A stretch of DNA of 64,000 nt. Source: Escherichia coli (GTDB lineage Bacteria; Pseudomonadota; Gammaproteobacteria; Enterobacterales; Enterobacteriaceae). Where the stretch lies: the NCBI RefSeq assembly GCF_003334785.1, contig NZ_QOWV01000007.1. One strand, given 5' to 3'. Both the position numbers and the translations under genes were made by a program. This document shows, one piece after another, positions 11,574 to 61,949 of this stretch. Numbering within the stretch: the stretch's first letter is position 1; the number at the start of each line of letters is the position of its first letter. The notes below the pieces were generated by a model, which saw only the letters and a program-made list of their open reading frames with translations, did not search any database and had not been told where the DNA came from.

Positions 11574-12231
11574 ACTTAACTCCACTGTCACACTTAACTC
11601 CCTTTCCCTTATTGGAATGCAGAGAAATAATCCTGAAGAATATGATTTATCATGCATATAAAATAAGAAAAAGCAAAATGAGTAAAATTCGGAAAACATA
11701 AAGATACGGGTTCTGATAAAAACAGAATCCATTGCCGTGGAATGAGTCATTTACCACAGCATAATAATCCATAATGTTTTTGTTGCGAAAACAATCTAAT
11801 CATAACTACCGCGAATACTCAATCATCTACAAAATGGATTAAATGTGCTTATTTAATAATTAATTTATATATTTAATGCATTAATTCTTAACATTAATTG
11901 ATCAATAATATTCACCAAATCAATATCAAAAAAATCGCAAAAGATATAATTCAATACAAATCATCAGGATAGGTTTTGCAACGCGTGCATTTTGTCCCCT
12001 TTTTCCTCGTTGATTAGATGCAAAAATTTATGCTGAAATATGTCAACCGATGAAAAGCGTCGGTAGTTAAGCAGAAATTAATATCGCTTACTTTAACCAC
12101 CGCAGCACAATTAGCTAATTTTACGGATGCAGAACTCACGCTGGCGGGACGTTTTTATTGCGTCAGGGTTGACATCCGTTTTTGTATCCAGTAACTCTAA
12201 AAGCATATCGCATTCATCTGGAGCTGATTTA
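11574..12231. promoter_or_regulatory. AT-rich divergent leuO / leuLABCD control region
   Basis: 658 bp, strongly AT-rich (runs such as aataattaatttatatatttaatgcattaattcttaacattaattg); candidate leu promoter -35 TTGACA at about 12169-12174, about 58 nt upstream of leuL ATG. Confidence 0.7.
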
Positions 12232-12318
12232 ATGACTCACATCGTTCGCTTTATCGGTCTACTACTACTAAACGCATCTTCTTTGCGCGGTAGACGAGTG
12301 AGCGGCATCCAGCATTAA
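12232..12318 (+). CDS. leuL: leu operon leader peptide LeuL
   Basis: 28-codon [31 protein letters not shown] with four consecutive Leu codons, immediately followed by terminator hairpin. Confidence 0.92.
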
Positions 12319-12337
12319 GCCAGCACGCAGTCAAACA

Positions 12338-12368
12338 AAAAACCCGCGCCATTGCGCGGGTTTTTTTA
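12338..12368 (+). terminator. leu attenuator (rho-independent terminator)
   Basis: cccgcgcc-attg-cgcggg stem (about 12343-12360) followed by T7 run (12361-12367), 43 nt upstream of leuA ATG. Confidence 0.9.
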
Positions 12369-18346: not shown

Positions 18347-18573
18347 AAAAAAAACCAGCAGGTATAATCTGCTGGCGGGTGATTTTACACCAATACTCAG
18401 TCACACATGATGCAGGCAAGTCAACTTTCAGAATTGCGGTCATCCCACTGCATCAGTCCTTCAAGCATGGTTAATCGTTGTGGGACGCTTAACCAACGCA
18501 ACCAGCACAACTTCGCTGTCGCGGTAAAATAGTGCTGGTAAAACTGACGCATGGGGCACCCCCTTGCTTCATC
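18347..18573 (-). ncRNA. sgrS: Small RNA SgrS (glucose-phosphate stress), about 227 nt
   Basis: 5' end GATGAAGCAAGGGGGTGCCCCATG (plus-strand complement at about 18550-18573); 3' end is hairpin ccagcaggtataatctgctgg plus U8 (plus A-run 18347-18354); contains sgrT ORF; divergent from sgrR. Confidence 0.9.
18421..18552 (-). CDS. sgrT: SgrT, 43-aa peptide encoded within SgrS
   Basis: ORF MRQFYQHYFTATAKLCWLRWLSVPQRLTMLEGLMQWDDRNSES, ATG at 18552 preceded by GGGGG; track ORF 18421..18720 is an upstream extension. Confidence 0.85.
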   Translation of the reverse strand: MRQFYQHYFTATAKLCWLRWLSVPQRLTMLEGLMQWDDRNSES

Positions 18574-20329: not shown

Positions 20330-20450
20330 CCGTTCTCAACGGGGTGCCACGCGTACGCGTGCGCTGAGAAAATACCCGTCGAACCTGATCCGGATAACGC
20401 CGGCGAAGGGATTTGAGGCTCCTTCTCAAGTCCTTTGCCACTCTTTTTTG
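20330..20450 (+). ncRNA. sroA: TPP riboswitch (THI element; SroA region) in thiBPQ leader
   Basis: THI-box core ctgagaaaatacccgtcgaacctgatccggataacgccggcgaaggga at about 20364-20410, directly upstream of thiB start. Confidence 0.88.
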
Positions 20451-27602: not shown

Positions 27603-29105
27603 ATGACGATTTTTGATAATTATGAAGTGTGGTTTGTCATTGGCAGCCAGCATCTGTATGGCCCGGAAACCCTGCGTCAGGTCACCCAACATGCCGAGCA
27701 CGTCGTTAATGCGCTGAATACGGAAGCGAAACTGCCCTGCAAACTGGTGTTGAAACCGCTGGGCACCACGCCGGATGAAATCACCGCTATTTGCCGCGAC
27801 GCGAATTACGACGATCGTTGCGCTGGTCTGGTGGTGTGGCTGCACACCTTCTCCCCGGCCAAAATGTGGATCAACGGCCTGACCATGCTCAACAAACCGT
27901 TGCTGCAATTCCACACCCAGTTCAACGCGGCGCTGCCGTGGGACAGTATCGATATGGACTTTATGAACCTGAACCAGACTGCACATGGCGGTCGCGAGTT
28001 CGGCTTCATTGGCGCGCGTATGCGTCAGCAACATGCCGTGGTTACCGGTCACTGGCAGGATAAACAAGCCCATGAGCGTATCGGCTCCTGGATGCGTCAG
28101 GCGGTCTCTAAACAGGATACCCGTCATCTGAAAGTCTGCCGATTTGGCGATAACATGCGTGAAGTGGCGGTCACCGATGGCGATAAAGTTGCCGCACAGA
28201 TCAAGTTCGGTTTCTCCGTCAATACCTGGGCGGTTGGCGATCTGGTGCAGGTGGTGAACTCCATCAGCGACGGCGATGTTAACGCGCTGGTCGATGAGTA
28301 CGAAAGCTGCTACACCATGACGCCTGCCACACAAATCCACGGCAAAAAACGACAGAACGTGCTGGAAGCGGCGCGTATTGAGCTGGGGATGAAGCGTTTC
28401 CTGGAACAAGGTGGCTTCCACGCGTTCACCACCACCTTTGAAGATTTGCACGGTCTGAAACAGCTTCCTGGTCTGGCCGTACAGCGTCTGATGCAGCAGG
28501 GTTACGGCTTTGCGGGCGAAGGCGACTGGAAAACTGCCGCCCTGCTTCGCATCATGAAGGTGATGTCAACCGGTCTGCAGGGCGGCACCTCCTTTATGGA
28601 GGACTACACCTATCACTTCGAGAAAGGTAATGACCTGGTGCTCGGCTCCCATATGCTGGAAGTCTGCCCGTCGATCGCCGCAGAAGAGAAACCGATCCTC
28701 GACGTTCAGCATCTCGGTATTGGTGGTAAGGACGATCCTGCCCGCCTGATCTTCAATACCCAAACCGGCCCAGCGATTGTCGCCAGCTTGATTGATCTCG
28801 GCGATCGTTACCGTCTACTGGTTAACTGCATCGACACGGTGAAAACACCGCACTCCCTGCCGAAACTGCCGGTGGCGAATGCGCTGTGGAAAGCGCAACC
28901 GGATCTGCCAACTGCTTCCGAAGCGTGGATCCTCGCTGGTGGCGCGCACCATACCGTCTTCAGCCATGCACTGAACCTCAACGATATGCGCCAATTCGCC
29001 GAGATGCACGACATTGAAATCACGGTGATTGATAACGACACACGCCTGCCAGCGTTTAAAGACGCGCTGCGCTGGAACGAAGTGTATTACGGGTTTCGTC
29101 GCTAA
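27603..29105 (+). CDS. araA: L-arabinose isomerase AraA
   Basis: Start [20 protein letters not shown] at 27603 (track ORF begins 24 nt upstream); 500 codons. Confidence 0.96.
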
Positions 29106-29110
29106 GTAGC

Positions 29111-29545
29111 CGCATCCGGTATGTAACGCCTGATGCGACGCTGACGCGTCTTATCTGGCCTACACGCTGCGATTTTGTAGGCCGGATAAGCAAAGCGCAT
29201 CCGGCATTCAACGCCTGATGCGACGCTGGCGCGTCTTATCAGGCCTACGCGCTGCGATTTTGTAGGCCGGATAAGCAAAGCGCATCCGGCATTCAACGCC
29301 TGATGCGACGCTGGCGCGTCTTATCAGGCCTACGCGCTGCGATTTTGTAGGCCGGATAAGCAAAGCGCATCCGGCATTCAACGCCTGATGCGACGCTGGC
29401 GCGTCTTATCAGGCCTACGCGCTGCGATTTTGTAGGCCGGATAAGCAAAGCGCATCCGGCATTCAACGCCTGATGCGACGCTGGCGCGTCTTATCAGGCC
29501 TACACGCTGCGATTTTGTAGGCCGGATAAGCAAAGCGCATCCGGC
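29111..29545. repeat. Tandem array of five 85-bp BIME units (each two inverted REPs) plus a partial sixth
   Basis: Unit cgcatccggcattcaacgcctgatgcgacgctggcgcgtcttatcaggcctacgcgctgcgattttgtaggccggataagcaaag recurs at 29111, 29196, 29281, 29366, 29451 (exact 85-bp period), partial copy at 29536; units 2-4 identical, units 1 and 5 differ by a few bases. Confidence 0.9.
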
Positions 29546-29559
29546 ACGAAGGAGTCAAC

Positions 29560-60754: not shown

Positions 60755-61345
60755 GTGAGCTATTACGCCTTTGAGGGGTTAATTCCGGTGGTTCACCCGA
60801 CGGCGTTTGTCCATCCCAGTGCCGTCTTGATTGGCGATGTGATTGTGGGAGCCGGTGTCTACATCGGCCCACTCGCCTCACTGCGTGGTGACTACGGGCG
60901 GTTGATCGTGCAAGCGGGAGCCAATATTCAGGATGGCTGCATTATGCATGGCTACTGCGACACTGACACCATTGTTGGGGAAAACGGCCATATCGGGCAC
61001 GGAGCGATCCTGCATGGTTGTGTGATTGGTCGCGATGCATTGGTCGGGATGAACAGCGTGATTATGGATGGCGCGGTCATTGGCGAAGAGAGCATTGTTG
61101 CCGCCATGAGCTTTGTCAAAGCGGGCTTTAGCGGCGAGAAACGCCAGTTGTTGATGGGTACGCCAGCCCGCGCTGTACGCAGTGTTAGTGACGACGAGTT
61201 ACACTGGAAACGGTTGAATACCAAAGAGTATCAGGATCTTGTCGGGCGCTATCATGCATCGTTACATGAAACGCAGCCGTTGAGGCAAATGGAGGAAAAT
61301 CGCCCCCGTTTGCAGGGGACAACGGATGTGACGCCTAAACGGTGA
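60755..61345 (+). CDS. caiE: Hexapeptide-repeat protein CaiE
   Basis: GTG at 60755 gives 196 codons; left-handed beta-helix repeats; start assignment tentative (track ORF starts at 60734). Confidence 0.88.
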
Positions 61346-61348
61346 TCT

Positions 61349-61528
61349 TGCCGGATGCGGCGTAAACGCCTTATCCAACTCTGCTGGAGAGCAACCGTAG
61401 GCCGGATAAGATGCGCCAGCATCGCATCCGGCGATAGCTGTCGGATGCGGCATAAACGCCTTATCCAACCCGGCTGGAGAGCAACCGTAAGCCGGATAAG
61501 ATGCGCCAGCATCGCATCCGGCGACCAG
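61349..61528. repeat. Two tandem ~90-bp BIME units (four REPs) between caiE and caiF
   Basis: ggatgcggc(g/a)taaacgccttatccaac ... gccggataagatgcgccagcatcgcatccggc repeated at about 61353 and 61443. Confidence 0.85.
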
Positions 61529-61553
61529 GTCGCACGGTATCATCGAAATGACA

Positions 61554-61949
61554 TTAACGACGCATACTCTTTGACAACATCATCTGCCACTTCTGCTCGC
61601 GGTTAAGTTCCGTGAGCGGAACGGCAGGAATACGCGGTGTCTTTCTTACGCCGACTAATTTTTCCCGACTGTTATTGCGCAGGCGCGCGTAAATTTGTTC
61701 ATCGATATCGACCACTTTAACCAGTCGCTGACACTGGCATCCCCGCCCTTCCAGCTTATTAGGGATCATCTTAACTTCGCAGCTTATTTCTGTGACTTCC
61801 GACAGAATATAAGTCAGGGTATTAACCGCCTTGCTGTGTTCAATATCGAAATGAATAGAGATCTCTCTTGCTATCACCCACCGATTTTCAGCCATCATCC
61901 ATTCGGCGATTAACAAGTAGAGTGGTTTTTCAACATATCCTTCACACAT
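61554..61949 (-). CDS. caiF: cai/fix operon transcriptional activator CaiF
   Basis: Start MCEGYVEKPLYLLIAEW at 61949; 131 codons; sits between the cai operon and carB. Confidence 0.88.
   Translation of the reverse strand: MCEGYVEKPLYLLIAEWMMAENRWVIAREISIHFDIEHSKAVNTLTYILSEVTEISCEVKMIPNKLEGRGCQCQRLVKVVDIDEQIYARLRNNSREKLVGVRKTPRIPAVPLTELNREQKWQMMLSKSMRR

Follow-up and report, generated by a model that had tools for sequence, protein, structure and literature searches.

A two-unit BIME-2-type REP array between the convergent caiE and caiF genes of Escherichia coli, a probably old and common allele of a polymorphic locus

The short gap between the convergent genes caiE and caiF holds an array of REP palindromes of BIME-2 type, consisting of two tandem Y-linker-Z2 units placed in the 3' space that is common to the caiTABCDE operon and caiF. 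It was found in a window of 64,000 nucleotides of Escherichia coli DNA (contig NZ_QOWV01000007.1 of the NCBI RefSeq assembly GCF_003334785.1), the window being the whole stretch of DNA analysed here. The caiE-caiF spacer is a polymorphic BIME locus with three common alleles of 85, 118/119, and 208 bp, and the window carries the longest of them. Taking class, age, and function together, we consider it very probable that this is a BIME-2-type array representing an old, common allele of the locus and serving the general role of REP sequences. Differences in BIME-2 copy number between E. coli strains have been documented before, and hundreds of public genomes already contain the two-unit allele; the locus in itself is of little weight, being a textbook case of BIME copy-number polymorphism. 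It also illustrates that K-12 cannot be taken as a neutral baseline for the REP content of intergenic regions, and that "longer than K-12" does not mean "expanded". In addition, the natural allelic series of 85, 118, and 208 bp, located between two convergent, inducible, and well-studied units, is a resource for testing the terminator-stabiliser model of REP function.

Anatomy and class of the array

The gene caiE is the last gene of the caiTABCDE operon and ends with the stop codon TGA at positions 61343-61345 of the + strand. The product of the converging gene caiF is a transcriptional activator of carnitine metabolism, and its reading frame ends with TAA (TTA on the + strand, 61554-61556). 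Both cai and caiF are induced when cells grow anaerobically in the presence of carnitine. The array lies between these two stop codons and is wholly extragenic. The CaiF translation is 100% identical to that of K-12, and in the window caiD-caiE occupy the + strand and caiF-carB the - strand, the reverse of the K-12 orientation. A 608-bp stretch around the spacer is found with 100% identity in E. coli ECCHD184 and KN13-4; in NZ_CP033250.1, which carries the identical 608-bp stretch, the flanking genes are annotated as caiE and caiF and are convergent. The features of the locus are collected in Table 1.

Table 1. Features of the caiE-caiF locus, in coordinates of the window
Feature	Coordinates	Strand	Basis
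caiE coding sequence	60755..61345	+	Open reading frame list; identical sequence annotated as caiE, 591 nt, in NZ_CP033250.1 and NZ_CP047461.1
caiE-caiF intergenic spacer, 208 bp: two-unit BIME allele flanked by 4 nt (5') and 31 nt (3')	61346..61553	.	Sequence, open reading frame list, repeat search
Repeat unit 1, 86 nt: Y-type REP, 17-nt linker, GTAG, inverted Z2-type REP	61349..61434	+	Repeat search
Unit 1 Y-type REP palindrome	61350..61379	+	Sequence; partial match to first hairpin of Rfam RF02564, 33.4 bits; hairpin in centroid fold
Unit 1 Z2-type REP, arms 61401-61414 and 61419-61432	61397..61432	-	Inverted-repeat search; second hairpin of RF02564, compensatory changes
Tail-to-tail REP pair (unit 2 Y and unit 1 Z2), caiF-sense strand	61400..61470	-	Rfam naRNA4 (RF02564), 70.7 bits (gathering score 59.5)
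Tail-to-tail junction linker GATAGCT between units 1 and 2; only in two-unit alleles	61433..61439	.	Sequence, allele alignment
Repeat unit 2, 86 nt; differs from unit 1 by substitution at 61441 (T in unit 2), 61452 (A in unit 2), 61470, 61472, 61490	61439..61524	+	Repeat search, 94%
Unit 2 Y-type REP palindrome	61440..61469	+	Sequence, RF02564 alignment, fold
Unit 2 Z2-type REP, arms 61491-61504 and 61509-61522	61487..61522	-	Inverted-repeat search; RF02564 positions 45-76, 29.8 bits
caiF coding sequence, 131 aa, convergent with caiE	61554..61949	-	Open reading frame list, annotation

A search for direct repeats returned a single family in the spacer, made up of the two units of the table. They are direct copies with a period of 90 bp, identical at 81 of 86 positions, and the five substitutions correspond to a divergence of 5.8%. 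The spacer contains four palindromes in total, two of Y type and two of inverted Z2 type; the first Y-type REP begins 4 nt past the caiE stop codon, and the Z2-type REP of unit 2 ends 31 nt short of that of caiF. An earlier note on the window, made from its letters alone, had described two near-identical units of about 90 bp with four REP palindromes and a handful of substitutions between the copies in a 208-bp spacer, and this description is borne out by the repeat search and the Rfam alignment. Each strand of the spacer folds far better than expected, with -95.4 kcal/mol (z -5.8) for the + strand and -108 kcal/mol (z -5.3) for the - strand, and none of 200 shuffled sequences folded as well. 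Chance origin of the array is excluded, because an 86-nt tandem repeat at 94% identity is combined with a fold far beyond that of the shuffles and with 774 genomes that share the same arrangement.

All of the REP/BIME and BIME-2 features that we looked for were found in the array, with the exception of the GTAG/CTAC foot. Rfam RF02564 comprises a Y and a Z2 hairpin, to which all four palindromes align, and both stems of the Z2-type hairpin contain compensatory changes. The outer arms of the latter read CCGGAT/ATCCGG, whereas the Z2 consensus has CCTGAT/ATCAGG, and the inner arms read GATGC/GCATC; both differences are compensated. BIME-2 elements are defined as combinations of Y and Z2 in several tandem copies that are joined by short linkers (Ton-Hoang et al., PMC3333891), and the linkers here are short as expected, with 17 nt plus GTAG within a unit and 7 nt at the junction. 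The family is dispersed in the genome: a BLAST query finds a median of 6 places per E. coli genome, with unit-length matches (~84 nt) at ~87% identity at unrelated loci, and the 64-kb window has 11 strict matches to the REP motif. On the other side, the outer stems of the Y-type palindromes are degenerate, with CCAAC in place of CCGGC, and two mismatches weaken the first Y REP. Both Y units lack CTAC; an intact GTAG foot is present in unit 1 (61397-61400), but unit 2 reads GTAA (61487-61490), which leaves the GTAG/CTAC foot intact in one of four palindromes. Because of the weakened outer stems, the absence of CTAC, and the single intact GTAG, some of the hairpins may be weak, as may any present-day transposase activity on the array. 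"Atypical BIME" is a possible label for such an array, whose class is set by its Y/Z2 units and linker lengths and not by the canonical S, s, l, and r motifs.

The Rfam family naRNA4 (RF02564) is a covariance model built on the Y/Z2 pairs of REP325, and the tail-to-tail pair that spans the junction on the caiF-sense strand scores above its gathering threshold. Among the alleles compared, scores above the threshold were restricted to those with two units (L005, 70.7 bits; L006, 63.6 bits; L016, 73.9 bits), one-unit alleles reached 34-40 bits, and searching the K-12 spacer with the model gave no match. Such a distribution would suit a nucleoid-associated small RNA of the naRNA4 kind that is created by the two-unit allele and that would act with HU in bridging REP cruciforms and organising the chromosome. 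However, the Rfam family in effect models a Y/Z2 REP pair and any BIME-2 junction scores with it, and four more matches occur in the araA-araD array of the same window. A pattern scan found no promoter-like site in or adjoining the spacer, and REP325/naRNA4 has been reported to be without measurable nucleoid compaction, with REP-REP contacts that are not HU-dependent (bioRxiv 10.64898/2026.03.23.713779). An RNA of this kind is thus very unlikely here, and we rejected a small RNA gene; the match is real but is read as that of a generic REP pair, which the ara array and every two-unit allele produce as well.

Alleles of the spacer in E. coli

The allele frequencies were obtained with three BLAST queries of differing specificity against 5426 complete E. 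coli genomes. The K-12-type allele of 85 bp, detected with a query spanning the K-12 deletion junction, occurs in 1896 genomes (34.9%). The two-unit allele of 208 bp, detected with a query that runs from the end of caiE through the inter-unit junction, occurs in 774 (14.3%). The remainder, about 2725 genomes (50.2%; 3499 with both flanks at a coverage of at least 80%, minus the 774), carries mostly a single unit in a spacer of 118/119 bp, together with rare variants, and 31 genomes (0.6%) stay unaccounted for by difference. All nine of the junction-query rows that were sampled at full coverage (H41-H49) lie at the caiE end. Spot checks gave 208 bp in E. coli C, JSWP006, ZF34, and strain 98197, and 118 bp in ERL06-2442 and F11, with two O157:H7 rows (H50 and H52) showing the coverage expected of a single unit; for the 85-bp allele they comprised TSW4848-W1 and a row of the O111 strain 11128 (H37), whose 485-bp span is as expected. 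No allele of three or more units was present among 16 sampled two-unit rows. BLAST sometimes joins overlapping pieces, and the rows H47 and H49 are ordinary 208-bp alleles.

In K-12 MG1655 the caiE-caiF spacer measures 85 bp (34696-34780); the earlier note had put it at about 85 bp, which is exact. When the alleles are aligned, the K-12 spacer corresponds to the lone unit minus 33 internal bp that comprise most of the Y REP and the linker, and its residual Z2-type REP has further substitutions. The difference of 123 bp between the spacers of K-12 and the window is composed of 90 bp for the extra unit and 33 bp missing from K-12. This alignment indicates that the K-12 allele is a derived 33-bp deletion rather than the unexpanded state. 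It still folds into one long hairpin of -38.8 kcal/mol on the caiE-sense strand. The K-12 RefSeq record lists no REP features, not even at araD-araA, and since the record is unannotated even there, we rejected the missing feature at caiE-caiF as evidence.

One of the rare variants is a 205-bp allele in E. coli CNREC_004-43 (NZ_CM195844.1, locus 501-705), which has a lone unit whose Z2-type REP is interrupted. The insert is a 98-nt fragment with 100% identity to IS1397, an IS3-family element that inserts into BIMEs, and the sequence of this fragment is present in 1720 of the 5426 genomes.

Age and origin of the second unit

At least three flank haplotypes carry the two-unit form, that of E. coli C included. 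Unit 1 of the window and of E. coli C is identical to the lone unit of the 118-bp allele in ERL06-2442, the unit 1 of JSWP006 is typical of the background seen in GPEC1035 and CNREC_004-43, and nearly the same unit 2 follows in all three of the window, E. coli C, and JSWP006. A wider scan took a single representative genome from each GTDB species that has CaiF. One unit is present in Escherichia whittamii and strain E69, and another Escherichia species (L013) has a spacer of 84 bp by way of an independent deletion. Two units in 208 bp are found in strain SCPM-O-B-8794 (L016; NZ_JAATUR010000005.1, locus 1897-2104), which is labelled as E. coli and serves as a separate species representative; its array repeats with the 90-bp period seen here, and the junctions resemble each other (GATCACTGTCGG vs GATAGCTGTCGG). 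The caiE gene of this strain is 95.9% identical to that of the window, compared with 97.2-98.3% for K-12, F11, and JSWP006, and the strain therefore falls outside of the sampled E. coli diversity. The better CCGAC stem is retained in both of its Y units and CCTAC in one of them, and its naRNA4 score is the highest that we have seen.

These comparisons suggest that the two-unit form is an old and widespread allele and not a recent strain-specific expansion, because it is found on several flank haplotypes and in a divergent Escherichia genome, and because its copies have diverged by 5.8%. The earlier note had supposed "an expansion here", that is, a recent expansion of the REP pair in this strain relative to the norm of the species. 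Such a view can point to the 85 bp of the K-12 reference and to the two-unit form being a minority allele (14%). It is contradicted by the 774 complete genomes, which come from chicken, human, goose, sediment, river water, and other sources, as well as by the haplotypes and the divergent strain above. Five differences in 86 nt are more than a recent event would leave, the allele of the window is 100% identical over 608 bp in unrelated isolates, and K-12 itself lost 33 bp. The allele census in effect rules this view out, and we regard it as extremely improbable. As for what the earlier note had named as speaking against expansion, namely the same two-unit arrangement in the reference and in other strains, it holds for the other strains and does not hold for the reference. 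Still less probable, to the point of being negligible, is that the duplication is an artefact of assembly or sequencing. Some assemblers are prone to errors in tandem arrays of palindromes, but the same 208-bp arrangement, with the same five differences between the units or close variants of them, recurs in hundreds of independently finished genomes.

The units differ from each other at 5-6 positions within a genome and at 7-11 positions across lineages, and these distances would fit one old duplication followed by gene conversion as well as recurrent duplication at the same spot. The junction GATAGCT is an exact copy of neither flank, and for this reason the mechanism of duplication is not readable from the sequence. 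The second unit would be the product of an old 90-bp tandem duplication, arising either through unequal recombination or slippage or through the REP-associated tyrosine transposase, and it may since have been spread or maintained by recombination. It has been demonstrated in vitro that recombination by TnpA-REP can add BIME units (PMC3333891).

Likely role and related systems

The array contains no intrinsic terminator of the classical type. A pattern scan of 61346-61553 found no hairpin followed by a T run on either strand, and a Rho-independent terminator was rejected on this ground. At the same position in other genera, among the spacers compared (L017-L065), there is a GC hairpin with an accompanying T run, resembling a classical terminator, in Proteus, Yokenella, and Atlantibacter; in Yokenella the hairpin is flanked by an A run and, on the opposite side, a T run. 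In Citrobacter and Pseudocitrobacter the caiE stop codon is followed within a few bases by a lone REP-like palindrome, and the REP of Citrobacter has CCTAC. A hairpin at the 3' end would thus appear to be a conserved feature of the caiE-caiF gap, because distant genera hold either a terminator-like hairpin or a single REP there. Some genera, including Salmonella, Edwardsiella, and Hafnia, have no caiE in the 1.5 kb downstream of caiF.

It is likely that the array plays the general role of REP sequences, as a 3'-end stabiliser and a partial, probably Rho-dependent terminator for both transcripts. In a transcript entering the spacer from either side, the four REPs would form stable hairpins lacking a U tract. 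Such structures would block 3'-to-5' exonucleases and so stabilise the upstream message, and they would also lead to partial, largely Rho-dependent termination with less read-through into the antisense of the other gene. Two units would present twice the barriers of one and might have a modestly stronger effect. The computed fold energy grows with the allele, from about -35 kcal/mol for 85 bp and -50 kcal/mol for 118 bp to -95 kcal/mol for 208 bp. Recent work describes REP325 as a terminator that depends in part on Rho and as an mRNA stabiliser, associates REPs between convergent genes with higher expression of both, and finds REP in ~30% of the convergent pairs of K-12, with ~40% of those REPs coinciding with predicted bidirectional terminators (bioRxiv 10.64898/2026.03.23.713779). 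The same study also finds that REPs vary widely among themselves and do not affect half-life in a uniform way, and caiE and caiF appear in it only in the differential-expression tables (bioRxiv 10.64898/2026.03.23.713779). A full-text literature search for caiF and caiE together with REP returned only irrelevant papers. The "bidirectional transcriptional insulator" proposed in the earlier note seems a fair description of this general terminator and stabiliser model and would also be in line with the terminator-like hairpins that other genera have here, and nothing indicates a function that is specific to the locus or the strain.

A more specific proposal would be that the allele series of 85, 118, and 208 bp, which amounts to about half, one, and two units of REP hairpins, forms a natural dial setting the levels of CaiF and of the enzymes of the carnitine pathway. 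The allele would then change both the 3'-end protection of, and the read-through between, the converging caiF and caiTABCDE transcripts. We consider such a dial unlikely; if it were true, the allele type would contribute to heritable differences between strains in anaerobic carnitine metabolism.

Two further roles have been weighed, and both could exist alongside the terminator and stabiliser role. At the level of DNA, the array may be a putative site for gyrase, possibly also for HU or Pol I, that removes positive supercoils between the converging units, and more units would then mean more gyrase sites. The position between convergent genes and the BIME-2-type composition agree with this, and BIME-2 elements reportedly bind DNA gyrase. 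The K-12 allele, with barely one REP, nevertheless serves 35% of strains; a strong requirement for gyrase sites is unlikely because these strains manage with it, and a gyrase role seems improbable on the whole, although compatible with a role at the RNA level. Control of supercoiling by REPs has been named as a role that is not excluded (bioRxiv 10.64898/2026.03.23.713779).

At the level of translation, the first REP might lower the synthesis of CaiE, with terminating ribosomes stalling near the stop codon and being removed by tmRNA-mediated rescue. Only 4 nt lie between the TGA and the REP stem at 61350, and an effect of this sort has been reported where a REP lies within 15 nt of a stop codon. 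However, it would be equal for one-unit and two-unit alleles and therefore leaves the duplication unexplained, and the outer stem of this first Y REP is weakened by its two mismatches. Down-tuning of CaiE is a doubtful explanation in our view, and it would again be compatible with the terminator and stabiliser role.

A second REP array is found elsewhere in the window, between araA and araD at about 29100-29550. It has about five nearly identical tandem units and ends 10 nt before the start codon of araD (ATG at 29560), and it is presumably the "ara case" to which the earlier note had alluded. Being a tandem REP-pair array with repeated naRNA4 matches (four, at 60.2 bits each against the gathering score of 59.5), it is of the same general kind as the caiE-caiF array, but it differs in its 85-bp period, its linkers, and its position between co-directional genes of one operon. 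The araA-araD locus has been used as a substrate of TnpA-REP (PMC3333891). The window also has the Rfam matches expected for the region, namely SgrS, the leu operon leader, and the TPP riboswitch, at 18347-18573 (-), 12218-12367 (+), and 20330-20429 (+), respectively.

Among known systems, the REPIN/RAYT (TnpA-REP) system resembles the array in that each caiE-caiF unit is an inverted REP doublet and one GTAG foot is intact. It differs in that no tnpA-REP gene adjoins the array and the second GTAG is mutated to GTAA; the GTAG foot is needed for the binding of TnpA-REP (PMC3333891). The REPs that act as terminators and stabilisers of convergent genes share the position of the array between converging 3' ends; the array itself lacks a hairpin-plus-T-run signature. 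With REP325 (yjdM-yjdN), which is composed of alternating Z2 and Y (bioRxiv 10.64898/2026.03.23.713779), there are differences in size, two units against six pairs, and in setting, REP325 being inside an operon and the present array between convergent genes. The two are alike in their alternating and opposed Y/Z2 units, short linkers, extragenic location in 3' UTR space, and strain-variable number of tandem units, and the caiE-caiF array matches the Rfam model derived from REP325 above its threshold.
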